A DNA stretch of 64,000 bases, taken from assembly GCA_964016885.1 (NCBI GenBank), contig OZ024741.1, forward strand, positions 228,098,001 through 228,162,000, written 5' to 3'. Made by a program: the position numbers and the translations under genes. Origin of the DNA: Eledone cirrhosa. Taxonomy: Eukaryota. Below the pieces are notes generated by a model. It worked only from the letters and a program-made list of their open reading frames with translations. It had not been told where the DNA came from and did no database searches. Of the stretch, positions 15,415-59,211 are shown one piece after another; the stretch's first letter is position 1, and every line of letters begins with the position of its first letter.

Positions 15415-18218
15415 CAAAGTTTGTTTTATAAATAGAGACGTACCCATGGAAATCATACCTTATCGGTTGGAAATTCACTGGGTAGTGGAGATATATTAGG
15501 GATTATTCAAACTTATGTGTGAATATGCAAATGAATATGTAAATAATTGAAAAACAACCGTTTATTTAAATGACATTAAATAAAGATAGAGAAGAAAGAG
15601 AGAGCGAAAAAAATATTAATATTACGAGAGAAATAGAGAGAAGGAATTAACATGAGGATGAATGTTGTCTTGGTTCCCTTGAAATATATATAATAAAATA
15701 AATATGGTTTTATAAATATAGTTTCCATTCATTTAATATCATTGAATATTTACTCCAGTATACTGTTGAGTGCTCTAAATCAGTTATAAACATTTGTTTG
15801 TCGGACTTCCAACAAATTAAATACAACTTCTACTTATAAATAATGTTGAGCACTTTAAATTATAACTGATTGCTAAATAATGTTGAGTACTTTAAATTAT
15901 AACTGATTGCTAAATAATGGAATTCTTTAGGATTTCTTCTTCTCTAAAAGATGTACCTTTACCTAAGAATAAGGACTATCTTAAACAACTCATTGAGAAA
16001 TCTGACTCCTTTATATGAAGACTTAGATGGCGTGCCTTTCATTTCAATAGAAAATCAGATGAAAAAACAAATAAACTTCGATATGATCTTCAAATCCAAG
16101 AAAAATCCACCTAACAACAAACTATTAATGGAATTTGAAAATGAAATAATATCAATTATACAAAACATCAAATTTAAGAAAAAACAATTTGCAGGCCAGG
16201 AATACCTTAAAGGCCTTAAGAATAATATAGACAATCTTGAAAAAACTAAGAAAATCCTCGTAAAATCTGACAAAACTAACAATCTATACGGAATGCAAAA
16301 GGACGAATACAATAACCTTATATTGAAAGAATTAAGGAAAAACTACAAAATAACAACCAATGAAAATCTGGAAATGGTAAATAGAGAAGCTTCTGAAATA
16401 ATTCATAAATTAGGCATTGAAAATAGGACCGAACCCTTTATACCTAGAAAACCAAAAATTAACCTGAAAGACCACAAAAGAAACTTTGAAATTGAACTAC
16501 CATTAGACTTATAGCACCATCTAAATCAGACTTAGGCATAGTTAGTAAACATATATTAAATAGAATCATACCGCAACTTAAAGAAATATCTCACCTAAAA
16601 CTATGGATCGGTACTAATGAAGTTATAGATTGATTCAATAACATAAAATTTAAACATAACAAAAAATTCATTCAATTGGATATTGCAAATTACTACTCCT
16701 TCATTTCTCCTAATTTACTTAATAAAGCCCTTATCTATGCATCTAAACATACAGATTTATCTAGCGAAGAAATGCATATCATTTTAACCGCACGGAAAAC
16801 TTTAATTGAATTCAATAATCATCTCTGGAAAGAAAAATAATTTTGATATCACCATGGGGTCATCGGTCTCGGCGCAAATAACGGATCTTGTGGGCCTATT
16901 TATTACATTGAAAAATACCAGAGATGACCGGTGGTTTATATCGTGATGACATGCTGCTTTTAATTGAAAATAATAGTAATTGTGAAATTAATAGAAAAAG
17001 AAAATCAGTAATACAATTTTTCAATAGCTACAATATTAAATTAGAAATAGAGAATAACTATAAAATTGTTAACTTTTTAAACGTAACATTAAACCTTAAC
17101 ACAGGGTTCTACTATCCATTCCATAAAATTAATGAGAATCTAAACTATGTAAGTTTTACCTCTAATCATCCTAGATCTATCAAGAACACTATTGTAAATT
17201 CTATCCAACAACGTATTTCACGCATCTCTGCTAATAAAAACATTTTTGACGATAAGGCAGGATATTATAATGAAGCTTTAAATAGAACAGGCTATATAAA
17301 TAAGATTAAATACATCGACAACAGTGATAAGGCAAATAACCTTACTATTAATTATAATTACAATAAAAAAAATCTAACTTAAACTCTAAAACTAACAGAA
17401 GAAATAGAACTAGAAATATTATTTGGTACTCACCACCATTCTCATTAAGCATTAAAACACCTTTAGCAAAGCTATTCTTCAAAGCACTAGATAAATGTTT
17501 CCTAAAGCCCATAGATACCACTCAATCTTTAACAGACATACAATAAAACTATCTTACTCTACTACTATGAACATAGCACAAAATATAAATAGAATCAATA
17601 ATAGAAATTTAAACCATAACCAAAATAGCAGTAATATCTCTAGCAATATCCACCATAATAGTACCGTTCCGAATAACATCAACTCCGCCATCTATCCATT
17701 TATCTATCCATTTATCTATCCATTTATCTATCTATTTATCTATTTATCTATTTATTGATTTATTTTTTTATTTATTTTTCGATTTATTTTTCGATTTATT
17801 TTTTGATTTATTTTTCGATTTATTTTTCTATCTATTTATTTTTCTATCTACTCATAACAGTAAATATTATATTAAAAATAATTTTTTAACAACTAAATAT
17901 TCGTAAATATACGTACCATTGGTAGATATATACTTAAAAGTTTCCCCCATATTAACGTTACATGACATCTATTCATCCTCATGTTAATTTCTTCTCTCTA
18001 TTTCTCTCGTAATATTAATATTTTTTCGCTCTCTCTTTCTTCTCTATCTTTCTCCGGTGTCATTTAAATAAACGGTTGTTTTCCAATTATTTACATATTC
18101 ATTTGCATATTCACACATAAGTTTTAATAATACCTAATATATTTCCACTACCCAGTGAATTTCCAACCGATAAGGTATGATTTTCATGGGTATGTCTCTA
18201 TTTATAAAACAAACTTTG

Positions 18219-19545: not shown

Positions 19546-20171
19546 TATACACAGTAAGGTATTTATGTACGCTAAATTTAAGGTGGCATATCTGTCGGAT
19601 CGTCTAAGAATAGTGGTTTATACAGTTGTCCAGTATACAGCAGATGCGTGGTTCGATTCTGATAGACAATTCTGTGCGGTTTTCTGTTATATATATATAT
19701 ATATCCCCAACCCTTTCCCCACTAACACCTCTAACACACTTCCCCTTTCACCCCCCCCCCGCCCCCACCACCACCACCACCAACACCACCACGAGAAATG
19801 GTGGCAGGATAGATGCCAACACACACAGATCCATCTAAAATCAGCAGCAGCTGGAATTAAGCTGACTCCAACACCAACACCGCTACCAACATAAGAGTAG
19901 AGGTCAGATGTACTTAACAATAACAATAACAACCACTACAGATTCCCTCGCCTCAGAACGAATTTCTATAGAATTTTGACTGAGGAATGTTCTCACAACT
20001 GACTAATGGGAGGAGAGGATGTCCTTTGACGCTGAAATTCGTTTGTTTAAATTCATATGATTCCAGTTCCTCAGTGAAATAACAACCCAACCAGGAACTG
20101 AGCATATCAGAGTATTGACAAAGTTAAACACCTCAACAACATGTGTACTCGTCTCTACCACACTAATTCGA

Positions 20172-20226
20172 ACTGCCTGAAGAAGTCACAGCCAAAGATG
20201 GCTGTCACGGAAATATATATAGCAGT
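20172..20226 (+). ncRNA. Minimal type-I hammerhead ribozyme in a pLTR remnant (~19940-20260)
   Basis: ACTGC-CTGAAGA-[ACAGCCA aaga TGGCTGT]-GAAA-TATATA-TA-GCAGT. Confidence 0.85.
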
Positions 20227-20301
20227 AATAAACGAAGCCAAATTTTAAATATTTGACTTATTTATTTTATTTTATTTTATTTTATATATATATATATATA
20301 T

Positions 20302-20378
<77 letters not shown>

Positions 20379-20583
20379 CACAGAGATATGTGTTCAATCA
20401 TAGGGGATCAAAACGTCCAGAGTGACAAACATATTAACTACGGAAGGAATGGTGAATACAAATCAATTAAAAGAATATATTAAAGTCTACTAACATTTTT
20501 ATGATAGCTCTAAATCGTAGGTATGAGAATTTTATGACACATTAATGACATGATACTTAAAATATATTTCTATGACAGTTTAC

Positions 20584-20662
<79 letters not shown>

Positions 20663-20799
20663 AGTGAAACTTAGTACGGCTAAACTTAATATATATACAC
20701 TCGGCTTTAACATAGAATACTCATATTGGTAGCACTTCCAGTAATCCACAAAATTCACAAATAACCTAAACTATATGTACGTATATATATATATACATA

Positions 20800-21120
20800 T
20801 ATATAACCAAAGATTAATATCGTTCATTGATTACTCAATTAATATAGTTTAACAATAGATTAAAAGCACTCTACAAAGAAGTTGTCTGGAGTTATTAATA
20901 TTATTCAAAATATTAATAAATGAAGACGTTCACATAATCAAAATATTTGTTTTATTATATATATTTCGAAGATACTGTGTTGTTTTTTCAGTACGTCCTC
21001 GTCAGATAAAATACATGAATTGATATATGACATACCTCAACTGTCTTGATGGTTCAATTCCAGTATTGGCAGTGATTTATTACAACAAATCTCAATATTT
21101 ATATACCACAAATAATAACA
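20800..21120 (-). mobile_element. PLE pLTR remnant related to PLE-1, ending in (TA)n
   Basis: Contains an HHR; 3' region layout similar to PLE-1 and the 61717 element. Confidence 0.65.
20948..21013 (-). ncRNA. Type-I hammerhead ribozyme
   Basis: Minus strand: TATTTTAT-CTGACGA-GGACGTACTG..CAGTATCTTC-GAAA-TATATA-TA-ATAAAACA. Confidence 0.82.
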
Positions 21121-22209
21121 TGATAAACTTAAATATGATGAAGAAGAGGATGTGGAGCGAGATATAAGTATAAGGAGGGGTGATTATGAGAAAATGCAAA
21201 AAGTAATAAATAAACACATACATAAATATTTAAATGCGTAAATATCCGTGTTAGGGAAGAAAAAGAAAGAGAGATAGATATATAGAAGAGAAGAAAGAAG
21301 AAGAGAGAAGAAAGAAGAGAAGAGATAAGAAAGAGAGAGAGAGAGAGATGAGAGAAGATTAAATACGTAACTGCAAAAAGGAAAGAAAGAAAGAAAGAAG
21401 GAATAAAGAGACCAATTAAATACCATGAAATTTTTAATATCTTTTGTATTTGGTTATGTTTAAGCTAATTATACTAATATATCAAAATTAAACAATATAA
21501 AATATTTTCTATAATAATGAGAAGCATAGTTTAATTAACATATACATATTAAATATTTTGTTACAAAATCCAAAAACATTTTTATCTATAAAGCAAGTTT
21601 ACATACCTATTAAATATGTATAAGAATATTTACCACAACCTATGCGCATATACTATCGGTATATGCATTTTATATAATGTTTAGAATTATTATCTGAATT
21701 ATTCTTTTTCCATTATAAAAACAGTTCAATTCATTAGTTGTCATTTACTTATAGTAGTTATATTTACTCTTAAAAGTATTATTATTTCGATTTTACTTCT
21801 GTAACTACATCTTAATATATGTAGTTTCCCTTAGAGGATTTTTGTATATTATTAAACTGTATAAATCATGTTAAATATACATTATTAATCCATTTGGATA
21901 GAAGGAAAATTAATTATGAAGAATGTAAGCAAAGGAAGATAATCCGTACAACTTATGTGATCATTTATAATATATAAAGTGCTTTGAAAGCCAAAAGATA
22001 TTTCAAACCGCAAATTCAGAAATTTCTAGTTATACAATGACCATTCTAAATCCGAACTTAGGATACCATGAGATTAATTTACTATATAAAAACGATATAC
22101 ACTTTTTAAGGTAAGGCAACACATTATATATATAGTAATAATAATAATATTTCAAGAATTATTAATAATAGTCAATATTTTTTTCTAAATTTGTATAATG
22201 CTTGAAACG

Positions 22210-22271
<62 letters not shown>

Positions 22272-22278
<7 letters not shown>

Positions 22279-23241
22279 TTGTTGCTCTGAAATAGCTATA
22301 TATATATGAATGTATATATAGTGTATTTTGCAATACAATGTATGCTTAATAAAAAGCATTTTGAAGACCTTATGCTATTGTTTTAGAGTAGTGACAGACT
22401 CACTTACTTTAATTTCAGCAAACAGGGGGAGATAAAGCTGACAAGGCCTTGTTTCTGCATTTTTTTATGCTTATCAAAGCCAACTACTCCTCCCGTTTGC
22501 TGAGAACCTGGATGTTTTGGTTCTTATAGAATTCTAGTAAATAATCAGGAACTGATTATACAGAGCGGTTGCCGGTCAAGCAGAAATTAAAAATTAGAAT
22601 TGTTGCTCTGAAATAGCTATATATATATGAATGTATATATAGTGTATTTTGCAATACACTGTATGCTTAATAAAAAGCATTTTGAAAACCTTATGCTATT
22701 GTTTTAGAGTAGTGACAGACTCACTTACTTTAATTTCAGCAAACAGGGGGAGATAAAGCTGACAAGGCCTTGTTTCTGCATTTATTGATTCTTATCAAAG
22801 CCAACCCCCTGTTTGCTGAAATTAAAGTAAGTGAATCTGTCACTACTCTAAAACAATAGCATAAGGTCTTCAAAATGCTTTTTATTAAGCATACAGTGTA
22901 TTGCAAAATACACTATATATACATTCATATATATATAGCTATTTCAGAGCAACAATTCTAATTTTTAATTTCTGCTTGACCGGCAACCGCTCTGTATAAT
23001 CAGTTCCTGATTATTTACTAGAATTCTATAAGAACCAAAACATCCAGGTTCTCAGCAAACGGGAGGAGTAGTTGGCTTTGATAAGCATCAATAAATGCAG
23101 AAACAAGGCCTTGTCAGCTTTATATCCCCCTGTTTGCTGAAATTAAAGTAAGTGAGTCTGTCACTCTAAAACAATAGCATAAGGTCTTCAAAATTCTTTT
23201 TATTAAGCATACAGTGTATTGCAAAATACACTATATATACA

Positions 23242-23246
<5 letters not shown>
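22272..23246. mobile_element. Non-coding ~320-bp-unit tandem + foldback element carrying a hammerhead motif (retrozyme-like), in (TA)n
   Basis: Unit 22272-22591, partial repeat 22592-22805, inverted ~1.4 units 22805-23246; HHRs at 22436-22481(-), 22757-22802(-), 23074-23119(+). Confidence 0.85.
23074..23119 (+). ncRNA. Variant hammerhead ribozyme (U3:A8 core)
   Basis: GGCT-TTGATAA-GCAT caataa ATGC-A-GAAA-CAAGGCCTTG-TC-AGCT; GUC cleavage triplet. Confidence 0.72.
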
Positions 23247-23301
<55 letters not shown>

Positions 23302-23402
23302 CAACACAATATAATATCACATTTCCCAAGGTTTCACGAAATTAGATGATTTTAACAGAAACGTCTAGTTCGTTTATTGATGAAATATTTATGTTATGGA
23401 TA

Positions 23403-25214
23403 CTAGCTGACGTACCCAGCTTCTCCCGGGTAAACAGATGATAAGAGAAGACAGGTAAAAGAGAAAATGACTGTATTGAATGTTTGTCTGGTTACAGTAT
23501 GAGGCGAGTCCATGGTGTATGTGTGATACAAAAAACAGTAATGAAAATCTTCCAGATATACCAGATTCTTCGTTGTACCGTTTGTGCATAGTATATGAAC
23601 AATTCTAGGTGCTCCCACCTAGAATAGTGACCTCTATGAGATGGTTCATCTTCTGCCTGACTGTAAAACGTGTATCATTGCATAGACGTGGTTGTTCCGC
23701 GTTTCTCAAAAGGATGATGGAAGCTCCAATATTTTATATTATATGTAGATATAGATATAGATAATTAATATAAAAGATGTCAGTCAATGTAAAAAAGGTT
23801 CCTATTCACTATAATCTGGATCGTTAACGTAAATTTGAGCGATTCGAGGCCTCTCTCCTGGGGTTACTTCTAAATTACCGATACAATGATACAAACGGCT
23901 TTGAATGAATATATTCAGTTGCCATGCTCCACTCTCAAACATCTCACTAACTCTCTGCGATGCTAAAGCTAATGAATTGTTAATTTGCCGCGAATATTTG
24001 CGCAGTAATCTACCTCGGTCTCCTTGATCACCCCACATACTTCGTATTTTAAACTCCGGTGACTCCTCATCATCCTGCATTCGCAAGGGTTCTAGTTGAA
24101 CTGCTCCTTTATGACAGCACATTGTGGTCCACGTCTTTTCGTGCCTCCAAAGCAATGCCCCACAATGTGGACACTCTGCTCGTCCATCAATCTGAAAATG
24201 ACACGGTTGCCATAATCCATTTTTAATATCATCCGTTCGCCTTCTAGCCTCTTTACTGGAATGAGAAGCACTTTGGCGACACATTCTCTGGACTTCTGTA
24301 TTGCGCTGACGCTGTTCAGCCAGCTCCTCTTCATCCATCGCAGCACGTCGTTGCTGCTGAATTCCGGCCATCTGCTGATGATGCTCAGCCAGTTTGTCTT
24401 CAACCATCGCAGCACGCGGTCGCTGCTTGGCTCCAGTGTTTCGTTAGCGTTGTTCAGCCAGCTCCTCTTCATTCATGGCGGCACGTCTTCGCCTCTGAAG
24501 TTCGGCGTTCCGATGGCGCTGTTCGACCCGTTTTTTTTCATTCCTGGCTGCACGCCGTCGCCGCTGTAGTTCACTGTTTGATAAAGTCGAATTGCTTTTA
24601 TTATCAGTATTCATTTCGGCAATTCTCAAAAAATGACACAATAATAAATATAAAAGATGTCCGTCAATGAAAAAATAGGTCCCTATTTACTCCCTTCACA
24701 ACTCTGTGTATGTTAGACTGACAGACAGGCTCAGTCTGATAAACTGCGTGGCAATTGTGGAACGCCGCACGTACACACACATACACGCATGGAAACGCGT
24801 ACACGCTCGCAACTTACACCCGCACACGTGCACTTACACACACGCACACACTTACACATGTTGATAGTTTTTACTTTCTGTGGAACGCTGCACGCACGCA
24901 CGCACGCACACACACATAAGCATACGCGCACGTACATGCACACGCACACATGTTAATAGTTATTGCTTTCCTTCCCCTCTTATTTCCACACACATCACAC
25001 ACACACATGTCTCTACACTGACACATATACATATACAGCGTTCACTTTGCCTCACTGTTTCTTACTCTCCCCTCTCACTCCCTCATTGGCATTATGCATA
25101 TTAATTTAAGTTTGGCGTCGTTGAGGTGGGCGGAGTCGTTTGAAACCTATGAACCAATGATAATCGAGAATTATGACACACGTAATACTGACATTGTTGA
25201 AATTAATATATAGA
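23403..25214 (-). mobile_element. Internally deleted Helitron
   Basis: Minus strand starts A|TCTATATAT and ends with hairpin CCCGGGAGAAGCTGGG..GCTAG|T; Rep N-terminal remnant 23802-24407 (CPHCGALLW..MCCHKGAV..NNSLALAS..RLYHCIG..AQIYVNDP); Pif1 helicase remnant ~23540-23725 (IILLRN..RLCNDTR, TKNLVY). Confidence 0.88.
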
Positions 25215-25232
25215 TATGATATACAAATAAGA

Positions 25233-25306
25233 TATTTCATCTGGTGAACGAACTAGACGTTTCTGTTAGAATCGTCTAATTTCGTGAAACCTTGGGTAAT
25301 GGAATA
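25233..25306 (+). ncRNA. Hammerhead ribozyme with A6G core change and a long stem II
   Basis: TATTTCAT-CTGGTGA-ACGAACTAGACG..CGTCTAATTTCGT-GAAA-CCTTGGG-TA-ATGGAATA. Confidence 0.7.
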
Positions 25307-25382
25307 ATTCTATTGTGTTGTTTATTATATAATTAAATAGAAATAGCCCTGCACTGTACATAAGCACTCTTCTTTCCTTTCC

Positions 25383-25472
<90 letters not shown>

Positions 25473-25849
25473 AGAGATAAAGGCAAAACCATCCAACAAT
25501 GTGAATTGTCATAGTATTCTAAGTAACATGTCATTAATATGTCATAAAATCCTCATAGCTACGATTTAGAGCTATCACAAAAATGCTAATATATGTTTTT
25601 GCAGAAGCGTCGTTGATATTTCATTGAACCGTCTTATAACTGCCGTATATGCAGCATAGAGGTACCATAGAGCTATCATAGATATGCCATATAACTGTCA
25701 TAGATTGGAAATAGATTTCTCATAAGTCATAAAAGTATCCTCAGAATTGTTCTTGATGTCTCCAAGGGATTTTTTTAGAACTTTCATAGGGTGTTAGGCA
25801 TTATTTAGAAACCATCTGCATTTTAGCTGTCATATTATTAGTAACCTTA

Positions 25850-27596
25850 GTATACACACGCAAGCGCGCAAAAATCATCACACTTAATAATTTTTTTCTT
25901 CAATCATTGATCTCATGTCGACCAATCACATTATTTGTTGTTTTATATATAGGTCACCGAGTTGGCATTTAATACATTTTTCACTACTAACATGGCTACC
26001 ATTTTAAGCGAAAAACGTACAAATATAATCCTTCTTCGTGAAGAATGCAATTCCCAGCGCCAACTATCTGTACGATTAGGTGTATCTAAGGCTGGTTTTC
26101 AAAAAGCTCTTGCCCGTAAGGCAACAACAAACACTCCTAACCCAAACAAGCGGTCTGGAAGACCACACAAGGTAGGAATTCAAACAGATTACATGATACG
26201 CCGACTTGCAGTATCAAATCCATCTGTTACCAACTCATATATCCAAACCCATCTTACTCGGGACACAAACATGTCATCTTCTACCATCCGACGGCGCTGT
26301 GTTAAGGACTTTAAACTTCATGCTTTTAAGCCAGCTGCCAAGCCTCAAGTTTCAAATAAAAGTATTAAGGACCGTCTGTGGTTCTGCAAGAGTTATCGTG
26401 ACTGGACTGCTACTCAATAGAGTGCGGTAATGTTTTGTGATGAAACATTAACAAGTTCCGGTCGCTCTCCAACAGGTTTGCGGTCGTGCCTTTGGCAGTG
26501 GAGATTTCTGGTGCCCTTGGCCCTACTCACCATCATAGGCGCTGAGCTGGCCAACCGCAGATGTGAGCCTTGAGAGATGGAATGGCTCTTCCAGCGCATC
26601 TTCCTTACTATCATGCTGGGAAACGCCTTCTCCATTCTGTCCGCCGGGGCTGTGGGGAGGCTAGCACGAATGAGATGGGGGCAATGACGGTGGGAGCTCG
26701 GCTCTTCCGTGTTCGGACATATTGTACCTGTCAAGAGTGTATATTGATGTACTTATAGCTGATATTTACAAATAGTGTGTCTGTAAGTGATAAAAGAAAG
26801 GAAGAAGGACGACATATTGTGAAAGATACTAAGAAAGGTTGTAGTCAGATATGACTGCTAGCACTATCATATATTTTGGTTTCTATTAATTCCCTAGGGA
26901 ATTGTTTGACCAAATGCTTTAGTTATCAGACAATGTGCACCTTATAATCACCATATAAGAAAACCACCTGGATAGCGTTATAATTCTCCTTATGTCAAAT
27001 CAACAGTTAAACATTCACAATCATTGGTGGTCTGGGGATTTATAAGCACAAGGTATGAGCTGCACCGACCATAATTCTAGCAAGGAAGCAAACATGTATT
27101 TGGAAATACAACATTATGGATGTATCGGCATGGTTGCAAGATATATCAACAATATTGTACTCCTTGCCATAAAGCAAAAACCATTAACCCATTTTTTCGA
27201 GAATCTGATATTGAAGTGCTGGCACCCTGGCCAGGTTCAAGTCCTGACTTAAACCCAATTTAAAACTGTTGGAAATTGATGAAAGACAAAGTTTCGAAGC
27301 TAAATCCCAGCTCAATTTCTGATTTACAACAAAAGCTTCTTACTGTATGGACATAACACATTAGTCATGAATGTTGCACCTTCCTAGTGAAATCGATATC
27401 TTGCTGAATTGCTGCAGTAAATGCTGCTAAAGGTCATCAAACAAAGTACAAACGTAGAATAGACAATTTGTAGCGTAATGCTTTGCGCTGTATGTTTGTA
27501 ATAATATACTATTTTTATCTAATAATAGTTCCTTGTTCAATATTAAGCTAACCTAATAAAATTATTGGGGTGGTCTCTGAATTATGCACAACACTG
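25850..27596 (+). mobile_element. Tc1/mariner DNA transposon relic
   Basis: HTH ORF 25962-26420 (RSGRPHK..DRLWFCKSYRDWT..VMFCDE), TVKH..VWG at ~27000, WPGSSPDLNPI*NCW at ~27225, right end ..CACTG|TA; left TIR not found. Confidence 0.82.
26452..26795 (+). mobile_element. 3' fragment of a CRE-clade (RLE) non-LTR element inserted in Tc1
   Basis: GC-rich; translates as ..VVPLAVEISGALGP..EWLFQRIFLTIMLGNAFSIL, matching the CRE C-terminal AVET.G..QRLS.AIQRGNA pattern. Confidence 0.7.
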
Positions 27597-28456: not shown

Positions 28457-29116
28457 GGAACTAAATGTTCCTTTAAAAAAGAAATAGAAGTGGTATTTAA
28501 GAAAGAAAGAAAAAACACGCATTTTCCTGATCATGGCTTCATTTGTCAACATCAACAACTTTCTCTTACAAAGCTTCTCATCTATATTCTACGATATGAT
28601 AAAACTTCACTTTTTCAAATTATTCACCAATCTTCCATTCTACGGAATATTTACAGTGACTTCGCTTTTATGTTTCGATTCATTACCAAACACTTGCTTC
28701 GTAATCTCAACAACAAAAGACAATACTACTAGCTTCCTAGCAAGAGAACGATCACATAAGGAGGACAAAACTGAACTTTTTGTAAAGAACAATTATGTAA
28801 TTTTTTTTTTTCTTTTCTTTCCTTTGCTGAAATTTTTGAAGATGTCAAGATGGCGGCTTTCTTCTTCATCAGTTTTTTTTGGGGGACGAAACCGTGCACC
28901 ATGTTGGATTTTGCTTTAGGTTCTCTGTAGATATATTGATAATGCCATTGTTTGCTTAGTCCCTCACTTACACAATATTTCGGATACATTCTTTTTCCTC
29001 TCCGGTTGTTTGAAGAAAAGACAGAAAAAAACAAGTGGATTTATTTTCTTTTTCCCTTGTGTTCGAGGTATTTTTCTTTACGGAGACGCATTTTGCCGCT
29101 TACTGAGATTGCACCA

Positions 29117-32100
29117 ATGGCATCTCATTCTATTCTCCCTATTTATACGGGCGACGTAAAGTTATGGTTCGCACAAATGGAAGCATTTTTCGAGGCTAAC
29201 AACATCGCCGAGGCACAGCAACGTCCCTTCGTCCTTAGTGCCATTCCTCCGTCACTTCTCCCAACTAATAAGGATCTCGTATTGGAGACACCGGCTGATG
29301 CTACTTACAAGTCGTTGAAGGCTGAGATACTCAGCCGGACTGCACAGTCCGCCAAGAAACGCTTTAGAGCTCTAGTCCATTTGGAGCATATCGGGGATGG
29401 CACTCCATCGAACCTCTTACGTCGAATGAAAGACTTAACAGTAGCGGAAACTGCGATATTGAAGCAGTTGTTTTTCTCACGGCTACCCACTAAAGTTCAA
29501 GCAATTTTGACCCCTATTAGGGATACATGTTCTGTGGACCAACTGGTCGCCTCTGTGGACAAGGTTTTTCCCCAGCTCAGGCCGTACCTGGCCATGCCAC
29601 CTGCGCGGAAGCTCATGCAGACAGCGCAGCTATAATGGCTATGCAAAAAGCTATTCTGGAATTCACCCTGGAGCTACAGAAGCTGAAGGCCTCTCGTAAT
29701 GCTCGTTCGCGCTCGCGCAGCCGCGGTAGATCTACCTCTTTCAGACACCGCCCCAGGTCACCAGCTTCACCTTTATGCTGGTACCACGAGCGTTTTGCTG
29801 AGAACGCGGACCACTGTGTACAGTCTTGTTATTTTGTGAAGTCGGGAAACGCCAGAGATTCGCTGAGGGCGGCAGTTGACCTCAGCGTAAAGCACCTGAA
29901 CCGCCACTTCTTCATCAACCTCCTGTCTGGAAGAGCCTTCCTCGTGGATACAGGAGCCTTCTGTAGTATTTGGCCGGTCCATTGCCTAAAGGATACCCCC
30001 GTGGAGTTTTCCCTTACTCTGCAGGCCGTTAACCACTCGCCTATAAAGACGTACGGACAAATCTCGCTTCCCCTCAAATTCCAAAATCTTCGTAGGGATT
30101 TTAAATGGATTTTTACGGCCGCTGACTTGCCATACCCAATCTTAGGAGCGGATTTCCTCCACAATTTCTCCTTGACAGTGGATATCGGGGGCCAACGTCT
30201 AGTGGATAACATCACCGGGTTCTCAATTCGTGGTCGAAGAGCCGGTGCTTCAACGGTTAGCCCAACCTACTTCATCGCTGCCGCTTGAAACGCCTACTAT
30301 TCGTTGTTAGAATCGTTCCCGGAGCTCATCGATGAAAATTTTCGAGTTACTGAGCCAACTCACTCAACCGAACATTTTATTTCCACAACCGGTGCTCCAG
30401 TATTTTCACATCCAATTCGTTTACCGGCGGACAAGTTAAAGTCAACACGGTCCGAGTTCGACCATATTCTGCAGCTGGGCATTATTCGCCCATCTACGAG
30501 TCCTTGCGCTTCCCCGTTACATATGGTGCCCAGGACTTCTGGCGACGGGAAACCCACTGGGGATTATAGGAAATTAAACGCGATGACCGTGCCGGATAGA
30601 TATCCGATTCCCCACCTCCAAAATCTCGCATCTACGTTGCAGGGTTGTAAGATTTTCTCCAAACTTGATTTAGTGCGAGCTTACCACCAAATTCCGGTCA
30701 GGAAAGAAGACATTCCGAAAACAGCTATTACGACTCCTTTCGGATCCTTCGAGTTTTTGACCATGCCTTTTGGACTCAGGAATTCCGCTAGCACTTTTCA
30801 GCGGTTCATAGACGAGGTCACTCGTGGTCTGGACTTCGTTTATGCATATATAGATGATCTTCTTGTCGCTAGTTCCTCTCCAGAAGAGCATATGCGTCAC
30901 CTGGACCTTTTATTTTGCCGACTCCAGGATTACCGCATTCAAATGAATCCCGCAAAGTGTGTTTTCGGATCCGCTTCACTGAATTTTTGAGGTCACATCA
31001 TCGACGCCGAGGGTATTCGACCCCTTCCACAGCGAGTTAAGGCTATACAGGATTTACCTCCGCCTACCTCACTTCTCCAGTTGCGTCACTTCCTAGGCCT
31101 AATCAATTTTTATAGACGTTTCGTTCCTCAATGTGCAAAATTACTGTTTTCCCTTACCGAAATTTTGAAAGATCGTCGTATGAAGAATGAGGATATTTCC
31201 TTGACACAAGCACAACTCGAAGATTTCCAGACTGCCAAGACAACACTTGCTAATTCATCTTTGCTAGCGCACCCAGTACCAGAGGCCAAGCTTTCGCTTA
31301 GTATCGATGCATCTGATACCGCTGTGGGAGCAGTTTTACAAAATATAACGCTGAAAACCAACAACCTTTGGCAGGAAGCTGAAACCGGCAGAAACTCGTT
31401 ACAGCACGTTTGGTCGGGAGTTATTAGCCATATATCTGTCGGTGAAACATTTTTCTCATATTCTTGAGAGAAGAAACTTTACGGTTTTCACTGACCACAA
31501 ACCTCTGACCTTCGCTTTGAGGGCTAAAGCCGACAAATATTTGCCCAGAGAGACAAGGCACCTCGATTACATTTCGCAGTTTACCAATGATATTCAGCAC
31601 ATTTCTGGGTCACTAAATACAGCTGCAGACGGCTTGTCACGCTTGCCAATCAGCTCGATTTCGTCATCCCAGGGGATAGATTTAAGTCGTTTGTCAGCAG
31701 ACCAAACTGCACTCGAATCGTTGGATACTTCATCAGTCGAATTTGCGATTTGTAACCTGAAATATCTGCCCTTGTCGACTACCGACAGGCAGATTCTCTG
31801 CGACATATCTACGGATTCACCACGACCTTATGTTCCCGAGACATACCGTCGAATTGTGTTCCTCGCTTTGCACAGCATTTCTCACCCAGGATCTTCAGCC
31901 ATAGTAAAGCTCATAACGGCTAGATTTTTCTGACCAAATATGATCGGGAAATTATTGCTTGGTGCCGTTCCTGCATACAGTGTCTAAAATCTAAAGTTCA
32001 CAGACACATCCAGACTCCACTCGGTACTTTTAGTACCCCGGATGCTCGTTTTCGACACATCCTCATCGATATCGTTGGACCTTGGCCAGTCAGTAGTGGA

Positions 32101-32940
32101 TATTCTTACTTTTTGACCTGCATTGATCGTTTTTCGCGATGGCCTGAAGCCATCCCCTTAAAGGACATTACCCCTGGTATCAGGGTGGATTTCCCGCTAT
32201 GGCGTGCCAACCACAATTACTTCAGACTGTGGTAGGCAATTTGAATCACATCTTTTTTCGGAGTTAACAAAAATTATTGGCGTTCAACGCATTCGGACCA
32301 CATCTTATCATCCTGCTTCAAACGGAATGGTGGAGCGTTTTCACCGCCAATTAAAGGCCGCTCTTCGTGCATATCCAGACTCTCTACGTTGGAGCAAGTA
32401 CCTTCCTATTGTGTTGTTAGGAATTAGGTCTTCAATAAAGGACTTTGGGTTCTCCCCGGCTAAATTATTGTATGGTGCTCCTCTAGCGTTTCCTGGGCAA
32501 ATGCTGGCCCCTGTTGATCTTGCTATTCAAGATCCTCTTTCCTACGTATCTCGTTTGCGCTCGTATCTTCAGGACTTACCACCTATAGATACCAGGAAAC
32601 AAACTATTAAAATTGCAGTCCCCGAGGGATATTGCCTCGTGGACACATGTCTTTGTCAGAAACGACGCTGTTAGTCCACCTCTCACACAACCGTTCTCTG
32701 GACACTAACGTGTGTTAGCACGTGCGGACAAACATTTCACTGTAGACATTAAGGGATCCAGCGAGACAATTTCGGTTGATAGACTAAAAAGAGCATACAC
32801 AGACGCTCATACACCTGAGCCACAAATACCCCAATCTTTCTCTATTGTACATACACCTGCTCCTTCTGCCCCACCTTCACCTACATACAAGACCACGACC
32901 CGTTCCGGTCGAAGAGTCCACTGGCCCCAAAAAACTCTGT
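29117..32940 (+). pseudogene. gag-pol polyprotein pseudogene (Gag-PR-RT-RH-IN order)
   Basis: ORF fragments 28952-29635, 29527-30288, 30304-30990, 31081-31467, 31442-31933, 32204-32674, 32712-33044. Confidence 0.9.
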
Positions 32941-49888: not shown

Positions 49889-52800
49889 TTAGTTAAGCAA
49901 AACAAGACGACAAATTTCACAAAGAAGACAACATTAAAAGATTGTCAACATTTTTTAGTTTTATGTAAGGAATGTAGAGAATAATAATAATAATATTAAT
50001 AATAATTGTTTCTACTTTTTAGCACAAGGCCACCAATTACCCAGTACATTACTGGTACTTTATTTTATCGACCCCGTAAGGATGAAAGGCAAAGTTAACC
50101 TCGGCAGGATTTGAACTCGGATCAGAAAGGGGCGTAACTCTCTTGCTACAAAGTATGTGTCCGTCCCTCTACCGATACTGCCAAACCACCGCCCTATAAT
50201 AATATTAATAATAATAATGTCCGTTTACAATTGTTTCGCTACTCCATATAATATTTCTGGATCAAATGACTATATATCATTATTGATCTGGTTCAGTTGA
50301 AAATAATTAACATATTTAAAAACAGAGCGGCTCATCGGAAGTTCAAAGGAATATAAATTAAGATAAGGAGAGAATGTTACACAATGTAATGTTCCATATA
50401 TTGGTATTTCACTATGGTGTCCTGGGTGTATCAATTGTCAGTCATAATGAAACACTATTCATCTGTCGAGGCTGCATTGTGTGAGATATGCCTATGGGTA
50501 ACAAGATGGCCGCCAATGGACATATTTACCTTACTAATTAGAGGGTGGTTTCAGGGGAAGTAACTCCTCGAGAGATTAGAAATTGTGGGTACTTTATAGT
50601 TAAGTGCTAATTTTTAAACTTTTTTAATTGAGAGACAATGTAGGGGAGGTAACTTATAATTATCTAAGTTAGTTATAGCTATTTAACTTATTAGCTACAA
50701 GTAAAAATGGAGCTAGATGACTATGTTGGGTCAAATATTCTGTTGGTGAAGCAATTATCCCTTCGATGTTGACAGCTAATAGTTACCTCCGTTCTATCGT
50801 TAATCGGTAGAGGTCGTGATAGAGTTATGTAATATGCTTCGGTAATACAGAGATCACAAGATTTTCTTCGTCCATTGAACGGTTGGGCCCTAGCTAAAAT
50901 AATCCATGTTAGTGAGTGTTCAATGTTGGTTAATTTAAGGTCCACGCAATCTATGAGGTTCATCCAATTTGACATCGACAGCTATTACGCTTCGATAACC
51001 CCGGAGCTGCTCAACAAAGCATTAACCCTAGCCAGCACCAACTCGGACATAACCAATAATGAGATTGACATCATATTTATGGCTAGGCAGACCATCATTG
51101 AATTCAACGGAGCACTCTGGACTAGAAAAGACAGAACAGACAACTTTGACATCACGATGGGCTCAAGTGACTCTGCGCAAATCACCGATTTAGTTGGAAT
51201 TTACCTATTACATAACATCAGAGCTGAAATCCAACCCTTGCAAGGCGGAATATACAGGGACGGCGCCCTATTTGCAGTCCACAATTGCATTAATCGGGGC
51301 ATTGATTTGCTAAAAAACAATTACATAGATTCTTTTAAAATAACGGTCTCTCCATCACCATCGAGCCGAACCATAAAGTAGTAAACTTCCTAGACGTCAC
51401 CCTGCATCTCAACAATAACCTATATTACCCTTACCATAAACCAGGTGAAATACTCACATATATTAGCCCACACTCTAACCACCCACCGGCAGTCATCAGA
51501 GCAGTAATCAAATCTATCTCGTATAGGACCTCCATGCTATCAGCAAACGAGGAGATATTTATAAGCCATGCACAATATTATAATAAGGCTCTTTCTGAAT
51601 CTGGTTATGAACAATCCATTTACTACATACCTAAATGCCATAACACAGCAATTCACCATAATAAACTTAACACTAAAACTAGAAATACCTTAGCATATAG
51701 CCAGATTCGCCGGAATTTTAGCAGTTACAGCACCTATACAGGGAACTTTAATGGTGGCAACGGCCTGCTCCCCACTCCAAGTAACAAACGAAAAATCAAC
51801 CCTAAAATAGGAATGAGAAATGGGATGACAAATAACAAATCCCCAGGTAATAATAACCCTAGGAGGCCCCTACCAACTCCACTAGAACCCCTAGAAGGAA
51901 TAGGCTTAGAAATATCACCTGGCTTAACCCCCCAATCTCATCTAATCTAGCCACTAATATCCCTAAACGCTTCTTCTCTATCCTATCTAAACATGCCCAC
52001 CCCCACCCCGCCCCCAACCATAGATATTGCAAACTCTTTAATAAAAATAACATAGTCTATAGGTGCACGGTTAAAACTGCTTCGAATACCAGCTCCTATA
52101 TCGTGTCTACCTCTAACCCTTTTATGGTACGCTATAACGCGTAGTCTTTTTCCTTCCGAGACCCTAACAACAGATGTTCGACATCTCTAGCTAGGCTCGT
52201 TAAAAACCTTAAATTAACCAACATTGAACACTCACTAACATGGGTTATTTTAACTAGGGCCCAACCGTTCAATGGACGAAGAAAATCTTGTGATCTCTGT
52301 ATTACCGAAGCATATTACATAACTCTATCACGACCTCTACCAATTAACGATAGAACGGAGGTAACTATTATCTGTCAACATCGAAGGGCTAATTCTTTCG
52401 CCAACAGAATATTTGACCCAACATAGTCATCTAGCCCCATTTTTACTTGTAGCTAATAAGTTAAATAGCTATAACTAACTTAGATAATTATAAGTTACCT
52501 CCCCTACATTGTCTCTCAATTAAAAAATTAAAAAATTAGCAGTTAACTCTAAAGTACCCACAATTTCTAATCTCTCGAGAAGTTACTTCCCCTGAAGTTA
52601 CTTCCCCTGAAACCACCCTCTAATTAGTAAGGTAAATATGTCCATTGGCGGCCATCTTGTTACCCATAGGCATATCTCACACAATGGGCCTAGCACTATG
52701 AAGACCTCGACAGATGAATACTGCTTCATTATGACTGACAGTTGATACACACAGGACACCATAGTGAAATACCAATATATGGAACATTACATTATGTAAC

Positions 52801-56266: not shown

Positions 56267-56449
56267 GGTATCCACAGTAAGTTGTGGGCTCTATTAGTCC
56301 AGAATTAGCCGTCGAAACGGCTTGAGCTCAGCCGTCGGGGTCTTACTGGTTCCTATTACCAACTCTACTACCCTAAGTATTGAGTACTTTGGTGCGTTAT
56401 GGTCCACCTGGTTCCTTACCACATTTCCTTCGTTATATATATATATATA

Positions 56450-59204
56450 TATTGTTATACTTTGGGAGGGTCATGTTGCCAATAAGAAACACACGCACCA
56501 GTTGCTTCACTTCAATTTAGGAATTTATGAATTTCCGGTTGGTTGGTTGGTTCCACAACCAGATGGTTGTTTATATATTGTCAAAGTTCTTTCGTCACAC
56601 ATTCTGTGACCTCTTCAGTGACTGGGGATTCTTTTCTTTGTTTTTGTGCCTCTCCTTTGTTCTGTCCTACGCCATTTTGTTTCTGTGTGTGTGTTGTGTG
56701 CTCAGTCTGCGCATGCGCCACATCCGGGTGTCTGTGTGTGTTTATATTCGTTTATTTATTTGTTTATTTACATGTTACAGGTTGGTTGTTTGTTCTATGT
56801 GCGTGTGTGTTTTCATTTTGTCCTTAATTGTAAGTTGTGATGTTGCTGTTCCACTCATGTTTTCTATTTAATTTTGGTTGTAATTCTTTTATGTTTATTG
56901 TCTCTGTGATTTGTCTAAACATTGCGTCTTTTCTGTGTGTAGATTCTATTTTTATTTCTATGTTCTCTAATTTACTCTTGTGTTCTATTTTAGCATGTTG
57001 GTAGAGTACAGATGATTCTTTACTATCTTGAAGGTCTCGCCAGTGTTCATTTATCCGTTCCCCTACACTACGAGCTGTCTCACCTATGTACACTATATTT
57101 TTGTCTCTACTTTGTCCTTCGGTACATCTTATGCTATATACTACATTTCTAGTTTTACAGTTAATATGGGGGCTTAATTTACAGGTTATACATTTCTTAT
57201 CTATACAGGGGGTCTTTGAAATGGGTATGTATTGCTAATAAGTGTTTTTACGGAGGTACCTGGTCTTTCTACTATCTTAATATTGAGTTTATGTTTATCT
57301 AGGGCCCTTCTAAATTTGTAAGCTAATTCACCTCTAGGGGTTGTATCGATGAACATTACACTCTGGTATTTATTGCTATCATACCATGAGTTTATTCTAT
57401 TAGCCTTATTCCTAGTTCTTTCTATTCTATTCCAAAATTTGCTCCTATACAAGGGGCAGGTCCTATTTGTGTCATTATTTACCATTTTTTCCCATTTGGT
57501 TCTGGCTCCTCTATACACTCTGATTTTATCTCGCTGATTGTAACCAGAGAACTGCATCCAGAGAACTACATCCAGGCAATGCAACCCCACATCACTAACA
57601 CAAGAGAAGTAACACCACAAGAGCATGGGGATAGAGAAAAAGCCCTCAATGCCCATATGGTGATGTGGACGAATATAATGCAGCCCAACAAAAGGACTGC
57701 CAACAACTTCCAGGTCTGGAACAATGACGTGCCGGCGTTTTATGGGCTTCGAAAAGACCATAAAACGGGCAGTGACCCTGTCACGGGACCACCAACACGG
57801 CCAGTCTGTGGAGCTAACATTGCTAGTAACTACAGACTGTCCTACTTCCTCTCCCTGATCATAAGCCCCATCATTGAAATGTCCCCAGATGTATGTGACA
57901 GCACGGAGGACCTCCTCAGCAGAATCGGCGAGAGTAACCGATCTAGGGACCTAACAAACTGCATAATAGGTAGTATGGATGTTGTGTCCCTGTATCCATC
58001 TATTGACGTGGATTTTGCTGTTGAGAAATGCGTAGAAATGATCAGTGAGACCAATGTTGAGTTCCGTGGGATTGATACCAGTGAGCTGGGACTCCTACTT
58101 AAACTTACCTATAGTAATAATTACCTACACACATATGACCTTAGCAACCTGTGCTCTACAAGACCAGCAAGAGGCAGACCACCTACCATTACCTCAATGG
58201 CCAAGAAAACCCACACAGATAGATGGAACGGTTGGACCAGAGCCATACGGACACCCGAAAACCACGATGAACTAAAGAAAATGTTTGCACATGCGGTGGG
58301 GGCCAGCATAAAATTAACCCTTAAGGAACATATGTTCAAATTTAATGGAAAAACATATGCCCAAGAGGAAGGAGCAGCCATTGGTGTTAGCATTGCAGGC
58401 GACATAGCTAACTTATTCATGGTATGGTGGGACAGTAGACTTAAACTTAAACTTAAAGAACAATTAGAAGACCCCTTAACCCTGATAATGTACTCCCGCT
58501 ACGTTCATGATATAAACATCGTAGTTTATACACCCCACTAGAGAACAGTCAGGAATTAGAGAAAAACACAATGGAAAGCATCCAGCAAATAGCTAACTCC
58601 ATCCACCAGAGTATTAGAGTTACTATAGACTACCCAATTAAACACCCCAACCATCGATTACCTGTACTAGACACAGAGCTCTGGTTAGATACCATTAATA
58701 ACAAAAAACAAATCCTCCATTCCCATTATGCCAAACCAATGACTTCCAAATATCTGATCCACCGAAACTCAGCTGTTTCGGACCATACCAAAATCAACAT
58801 ACTGATTGCGGATTTGGTACGGGTGATGAGAAACGTGTCCCGCATGTGCAATCCCGAAGAACTAGAGAGATACATACAACACTTCATCCACCGTATGCAG
58901 TTCTCTGGTTACAATCAGAGAGATAAAATCAGAGTGTATAGAGGAGCCAGAACCAAATGGGAAAAAATGGTAAATAATGACACAAATGGGAGCTGCCCCC
59001 TGTATAGGAGCAAATTTTGGAATAGAATAGAAAGAACTAGGAATAAGGCTAATAGAATAAACTCATGGTATGATAGCAATAAATACCAGAGTGTAATGTT
59101 CATCGATACAACCCCTAGAGGTGAATTAGCTTACAAATTTATAAGGGTCCTAGATAAACATAAACTCAATATTAAGATAGTAGAAAGACCAGGTACCTCC
59201 GTAA
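56450..59204 (+). mobile_element. Penelope-like element PLE-4 (a different clade, Neptune/Nematis-like): inverted 3' part 56450-57558 plus direct RT 57559-59204
   Basis: RT 57579-58541 (SMDVVSLYPSI, GAAIG, RYVHDI), thumb 58571-59204; minus-strand GIY-YIG 56824-57150 (VYIGETARS..R..EH..LNRKHEW); 57245-57558 is an inverted copy of 58895-59204. Confidence 0.88.
56580..56622 (-). ncRNA. Minimal hammerhead ribozyme (PLE-4 pLTR)
   Basis: Minus strand: GTCA-CTGAAGA-G GTCACA gaatg TGTGAC-GAAA-GAAC-TT-TGAC. Confidence 0.78.
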
Positions 59205-59211
59205 AAAAAAT

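Follow-up and report, generated by a model that had tools for sequence, protein, structure and literature searches.

What kind of element occupies 22211–23299 of the window (the whole 64,000-nucleotide stretch of DNA analysed), where near-identical units bearing hammerhead motifs run first one way and then the other between two TA tracts, and what machinery put it there? Animal non-LTR retrozymes are described as 170–400-nt hammerhead tandems that yield circular RNAs, with PLEs proposed as their carriers from common traits and co-existence (PMC7229834). In the available texts, the case for PLEs in animal retrozyme mobility has so far been built on co-occurrence and pLTR similarity (PMC7229834; 10.64898/2026.07.22.740005). 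PLE insertions themselves have a characteristic layout, namely an inverted 5'-truncated copy, a 30–40-bp tail at one end, and a bias towards (TA)n (10.1101/2021.04.23.441226; PMC3846280), and the tail is explained in the accessible part of PMC11167929 by two start sites of reverse transcription.

We conclude, with a probability of about 0.62, that the locus is an insertion of a dispersed, non-coding 321-nt hammerhead repeat, likely made by a PLE RT–GIY-YIG protein from a predicted self-processed, probably circular RNA. By all testable genomic features, the element is an animal non-LTR retrozyme with a predicted ribozyme and PLE-type insertion marks. In the mainly open-access main texts consulted, we came across neither a U3:A8 retrozyme nor retrozymes whose ends combine the PLE tail with inversion. 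The PLE-specific tail and inversion are found on the insertions themselves, and each array as a whole seems to derive from a single template variant. If the circular-RNA reading is true, the copies provide a genomic footprint tying animal retrozymes to the PLE machinery.

Anatomy of the locus

The unit period is 321 nt, as seen in the direct repeat 22267–22484/22588–22805 (97% alike), and the inverted arms 22390–22750/22805–23165 are 99% complementary over 361 nt. With the unit numbered such that u1 is the base just 3' of the predicted cut, the minus arm (~553 nt, 1.7 units, its final 15 nt overlapping the plus arm) runs from ~u276 through a complete unit, predicted cut to predicted cut, at 22760–22440, and then through a 3' partial unit (u1–143, 22297–22439, minus strand) which carries two conserved hairpins upstream of the fixed ends, to reach u168 at 22272. 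The last 25 nt of this course (u144–168, 22272–22296, minus strand) form a tail present at the left end and absent from the right, and by analogy with the tail mechanism set out in the accessible part of PMC11167929 it probably represents the segment separating two start sites of reverse transcription. The plus arm (22805 to ~23255, ~454 nt, 1.4 units) comprises u11–321 followed by u1–143 and ends, without a tail, at ~23246–23255, the exact base not being fixable inside the TA tract. The arms meet in a head-to-head inversion junction at 22800–22819, within the two complementary strands of stem I. On the left, a (TA)n target tract extends over 22211–22273; on the right, a second tract (23232–23299) overlaps the TA-rich end of the unit. 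The longest Met-started ORF is 28 aa and the GC content 32%. The ~320-bp tandem/foldback without an ORF, with its 1.7 copies one way, 1.4 inverted and TA tracts on both sides, is much as the preliminary description had it.

That description had also read three variant hammerheads from the letters, and all three were confirmed. One type I motif lies at 22414–22504 on the minus strand (core UUGAUAA 22477–22471, predicted cut after C17 at 22440) and shows an extra A before G12, a palindromic stem III, and a long stem I with an internal loop; another lies at 23051–23142 on the plus strand (core UUGAUAA starting at 23078, with C17 at 23115 as the last base before the predicted cut). The third, at 22755–22804 (minus strand, core at 22798, predicted cut after 22761), is truncated at its 5' side, shows a mismatch (C to A) in stem II, and takes its 5' stem I strand from the inversion junction. 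All three share a 4-bp stem II that an A separates from GAAA, the palindrome ACAAGGCCUUGU as stem III, and GUC, and the two on the minus strand are spaced 321 nt apart. Further hallmarks of the unit are the two hairpins and the motifs GGUCUUC and GACCGGCAACCGCUC. An Rfam scan of 20000–26000 returned 34 matches at E≤10 and no hammerhead among them, only weak, microsatellite-driven miRNA matches; the surroundings in the window are rich in microsatellites and retroelement fragments. The window belongs to contig C2 of a 3.0-Gb animal assembly that, judging by repeat motifs, may be octopod.

Whether the locus itself could release a ~320-nt monomer or circle, as had been proposed, is a different matter. 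In the predicted fold of its read-through RNA (−769 kcal/mol), the hammerheads with cores at 22477 and 23078 are fully paired with each other. Because such an RNA would form a 360-bp hairpin that hides the ribozymes, the locus is probably a dead copy and an unlikely source of monomers.

The hammerhead and its family

Covariation supports the hammerhead as a folded RNA. Across 18 aligned copies, which were hand-picked and are related, so that their changes are not independent events, 96.1% of cells are paired, and both partners have changed in 10 of 27 pairs, 43 such cells being counted against 13.3 ± 3.9 in shuffled alignments; slid controls pair in only 34–47%. Stems I–III all covary across subfamilies. 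Stem II occurs as GCAU/AUGC, GCAC/GUGC, GUAC/GUAC, and AUAC/GUAU, and stem III is a 12-nt palindrome that stays palindromic in every variant (AAGGCCUU, AGGGCCCU, AGAGCUCU, AGAGAUCU). Invariant letters in alignment A1 are U4, G5, A6, A9, G12–A15, U16, and C17, and the 3:8 position is U:A in 14 copies, C:G in three, and U:G in one. The three stems around the core are thus present, and the 3:8 Watson–Crick pair is retained by U3:A8. An internal loop in stem I and an A-rich loop 2 are candidate partners for the loop 1–loop 2 tertiary contact of type I hammerheads. The two hairpins and the closing helix that directly precede the fixed ends show the same pattern more weakly (95.9% paired, two-sided change in 4 of 20 pairs).

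The predicted folds favour a dimer. Stem III alone does not fold, self-pairing is predicted at −19.5 kcal/mol, and the active monomer fold lies 5–6 kcal/mol above a misfold. In the lowest-energy fold of 22272–22810 (minus strand), two stem III palindromes are joined such that the junction combines the upstream cut site with the downstream core, at −145.5 kcal/mol compared to −123.9 kcal/mol for two monomer folds. A dimer mode of the hammerhead is described in the available text of PMC4209133.

The family is large. A 28-mer of the extra-A subfamily has at least 178 exact genome matches on many contigs, and these are not chance hits, since the reversed control has none; a 32-mer of the unit body has at least 1,160 and a 16-mer common to the sisters, and hence to the superfamily, at least 18,504, again with reversed controls at zero, all counts being lower bounds on units rather than loci. 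This bears out the multi-copy, retrozyme-type family that had been suspected. Up to four consecutive units occur at one locus (L032).

In the 27 closest loci, with three duplicates set aside, 49 hammerhead anchors include 44 untruncated ones, all of which carry U3, A8, and the extra A. The wider sample, 40 loci at the first listed of the 1,160 32-mer places, not picked for their ribozyme, yielded 66 hammerheads with a 3:8 pair of U:A in 53, C:G in 10, C:A in two, and U:G in one, and the extra A in none. The same stem II context has 304 exact matches without the extra A versus 170 with it, and in contigs of three public runs (one sample, data type unstated) most of the depth at 23099 lacks it. 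A tree built from 39 full units, given a midpoint root purely for display, places C3:G8 units outside the U3:A8 clade (support 95/96) and the extra-A units inside a nested 13-row clade (98/94), one row of which lacks the extra A. From the subfamily counts and this nesting, we take U3:A8 to be an inherited trait of the family and the extra A to be a later change in one derived subfamily. Some subfamilies keep C3:G8, and some extra-A copies carry U3:G8. Since U3:A8 prevails and the family is dispersed, the element is neither single-copy nor a locally decayed member of a CUGANGA family. The preliminary description was therefore right about U3:A8 but had generalized the extra A too far; likewise, the family that it called young is not so throughout, as older subfamilies are 80–92% alike to the unit of our locus.

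Diverged sisters that are 74–82% alike share the unit body and carry different hammerhead modules (L036:2393–2742; L134:2438–2871; L019:1823–2103). One of these hammerheads is U3:A8 with a C–A mismatch, so that U3:A8 may have had more than one origin.

By itself, the U3:A8 core is no novelty. Canonical descriptors do miss it, as the preliminary description had argued, but the hidden class inferred from this does not hold up, because the variant has been published and also follows the endonuclease in an autonomous PLE of the same genome, an EN+ family unrelated to ours (L134:2184–2268; L160) whose hammerhead has a U–U mismatch at the base of stem II. The literature available to us contains several natural examples (PMC3088659) and ~1,300 matches in Schistosoma PLE hammerheads (Cercyon PLE min-HHRs, PMC4209133). 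These published variants share the C3–G8 to U3–A8 covariation with the 321-nt family, which differs in having a retrozyme-type hammerhead with a 4-bp stem II, a long stem I, and an origin traceable among its sisters. Unrelated UUGAGAA hammerheads were also seen at L163 and L201.

The extra A is the one tested feature at which the hammerhead predicted for our locus's subfamily departs from the canonical core. It lies 3' of stem II, so that the closing pair 10.1–11.1 is not directly adjacent to G12 as it is in the sisters, whereas the accessible part of PMC4209133 places an extra base between A9 and 10.1, and that of PMC3088659 insertions after A6 and A13. In the mainly open-access main texts consulted, we came across no account of a base inserted between 11.1 and G12. 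G12 is the general base of the hammerhead. As the inserted A adjoins it, the predicted ribozyme of this subfamily may be crippled. The series C3:G8, U3:A8, and U3:A8 plus extra A forms a natural mutational series on catalysis versus spread.

Insertion footprint and sister arrays

Evidence on mobility comes from the ends of the copies. In 114 loci with 205 arms, picked by probes that match the cut or sequence upstream of it, a choice that favours read-through arms, 94 arms end near u143, 92 near u168–175, and 19 elsewhere. Fixed 3' ends at one of two points are thus found in 186 of 205 arms, the longer end corresponding to a 25–30-nt tail, and 178 of these 186 abut TA. Head-to-head pairs combine one short and one tailed end in 64 of 79 cases, most of their junctions overlap by a few bases, and hardly any two loci share an inversion point, the 5' ends being scattered round the unit. 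Arms longer than one unit number 95 of 205, and 12 exceed two units. In all paired loci mapped, u1 of an arm leads back into u321 of that same unit; the mapped loci hold no same-strand ORF attached to the unit and no RT plus GIY-YIG ORF. The two arms of an insertion also resemble each other: over 50 pairs, they have 113 non-majority bases in common, against a mean of 27 (maximum 43) in 200 shufflings, and differ at 261 sites. This likeness could also come from fold-back gene conversion.

The family's insertions match the published PLE insertion signature. As far as the available texts describe them, EN+ PLE insertions share with the 321-nt family their fixed 3' ends, one-sided tail, variable 5' truncation, head-to-head inversion, (TA)n targets, and a hammerhead ~140 nt upstream of the end (PMC3846280; 10.1101/2021.04.23.441226; PMC11167929), whereas the 321-nt unit has no ORF, closes on itself, and has no match to the pLTRs examined. 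Because the copies have PLE-type fixed ends, tail, and inversion, the family likely spreads via a borrowed PLE enzyme. The earlier idea of mobilization by a PLE RT thus gains support from the footprint (186/205 fixed ends, 64/79 one-tail pairs), although no partner PLE of the U3:A8 family was found among the ~100 PLE loci examined. In 12+6+30+30+20 PLE loci, a small part of more than 10,000 candidates, the unit matched the pLTRs in nothing beyond TA-rich bits; these loci represent the PLE family at 56.4–59.2 kb of the window, the top 30 GIY-YIG Pfam loci, 30 of another EN family, and 20 more.

Single arms joined head to head to other TA-targeting elements were observed at L046, L070, L130, L172, L033, L045, L066, and L191, the partners being EN+ PLEs, other hammerhead elements, and one LINE-like end (at L033). 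Chimeras between the unit and EN+ PLEs, such as the head-to-head joint at L046, were considered as proof of a partner and rejected, because their end classes break the one-tail rule: among 15 joints examined, of 41 unpaired arms, those at L046, L070, and L130 are tailed on both ends. They may reflect deletion between neighbours or mixed-template insertion.

A sister retrozyme with a unit of 310/311 nt, ~80% alike over u62–215, has C3:G8, the canonical core CUGAUGA, and a U–U or A–U pair at the base of stem II; it appears to account for most of the 18,504 superfamily matches. Its arrays (L119–L124, at G000:C1:1238000–1246000 and others; L061:2001–3322) are likewise inverted, carry 8–16 hammerheads, and keep the same two fixed ends. 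In six of them, full units are identical within the array and across both arms (12/12, 11/12, 9/9, 13/14, 6/6, and 6/6), with 0–6 changes between arrays; in a seventh, one-armed array all three units differ. Such homogeneity fits many-fold copying of one RNA variant, whether by rolling circle or from a homogeneous multimer, and the sister would be a better target than our locus for finding circles.

Proposed route of spread and competing explanations

In the route that we propose, tandem source loci would be transcribed, neighbouring hammerheads would pair via the 12-nt palindromic stem III, and the resulting double hammerhead would cut after GUC, whereupon the monomers would be ligated into circles, as in published retrozymes. 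A PLE protein would bind the structured region at ~u60–215 and nick both strands of a TA tract. To judge from the footprint, reverse transcription would start at u~143 on one strand and at u~168–173 on the other; each cDNA would pass the ligation point and stop variably, and the two would meet head to head, in many cases with a few bases in common. The copy at our locus would be a dead product of this route, its ribozymes hidden in a long hairpin RNA.

The strongest competitor keeps the PLE-dependent parasite but makes its template an uncleaved tandem read-through RNA, with the hammerhead fold serving protein binding, or being slow, and dead in the extra-A subfamily. Cleavage has indeed left no genomic trace, as 5' ends do not pile up at the predicted cut (2 of 199 in u318–u3 versus 4.3 expected, three loci with arrays off the locus edge or locally tandem being left out), and a mild cluster at u9–25, in the 3' strand of stem I, was seen by eye. 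Arms of the U3:A8 family are mostly short (12/205 over two units), and a subfamily with an insertion beside G12, including some U3:G8 copies, still spread. In the accessible part of PMC11167929, hammerhead mutants had no effect on PLE insertion in vitro, so that activity is dispensable there, and eight of nine Xenopus retrozyme dimers are reported without cleavage (10.64898/2026.07.22.740005, available text). On the other hand, the core letters are invariant while the stems covary, which fits selection on catalysis, and linear-only copying would shrink arrays in each round, whereas the 310-nt arrays reach 16 hammerheads with identical units. We therefore regard an uncleaved template as somewhat unlikely, yet worth taking seriously.

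It is improbable that the units are truncated pseudo-LTRs of an autonomous PLE that became tandem later by unequal crossing over. Most PLE copies are 5'-truncated pLTR stumps, such a route is proposed for vertebrate retrozymes in the available text of 10.64898/2026.07.22.740005, and our partner search covered part of the genome's PLE families; but in the paired loci mapped the arms pass between u1 and u321 of the same unit and never into an ORF end, and the arrays to either side of the inversion agree in variant and retain the fixed ends, an indication that they were already arrays when inserted. A MITE-like DNA fold-back element, or an assembly chimera from fold-back reads, would produce near-perfect 361-nt inverted arms with microsatellite flanks, but would not explain an inversion point that varies at nearly every locus between fixed and unequal outer ends, strand-specific RNA covariation, or at least 178 exact matches on many contigs, and this explanation is largely refuted.

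Returning to insertion from a self-processed RNA, we extend it to the superfamily only tentatively. Its more than 18,000 units may be the record of circular ribozyme RNAs that PLE RTs copied by rolling circle and inserted as ready-made inverted arrays, the core passing from C3:G8 to U3:A8 and then to a still active U3:A8 with an extra base before G12, and array length tracking ribozyme efficiency. Retrozyme units could be used directly as paired substrates in the in vitro PLE assay in the accessible part of PMC11167929.

Compared with the animal non-LTR retrozymes in the available texts of PMC7229834 and 10.64898/2026.07.22.740005, the 321-nt family is likewise a non-coding, low-GC tandem within the 170–400-nt range, with one type I hammerhead per unit, a short palindromic stem III, and dispersed dimers to multimers co-occurring with PLEs. 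It differs in its U3:A8 core, which canonical descriptors miss, in the extra A before G12 of one subfamily, in the 12-nt length of the stem III palindrome, and in the PLE tail and inversion in (TA)n.

Other elements share this setting. Hammerhead tandem families with periods of ~464–470 nt lie in TA hot spots at L032:5061–6200, L035:5399–5865, and L130:4184–4738. In the window, 56440–59210 belongs to an abundant, autonomous EN+ PLE family, of which it is a truncated copy with an inversion. The family has ORFs of up to ~1,250–1,290 codons elsewhere, a minimal hammerhead, a ~55-nt tail, and the same two-end layout as the 321-nt insertions. Decayed Neptune-like PLE fragments lie at 15948–17700 and 50833–52430, and Pfam recognized none of the seven PLE fragments submitted from the window. 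At 23802–24580 (minus strand), an ORF with a 69-bp repeat and CxxC motifs has no Pfam match and resembles a Helitron N-terminal region. Gypsy-like pol remnants extend over 28943–32674, and several LINE remnants are scattered through the window.
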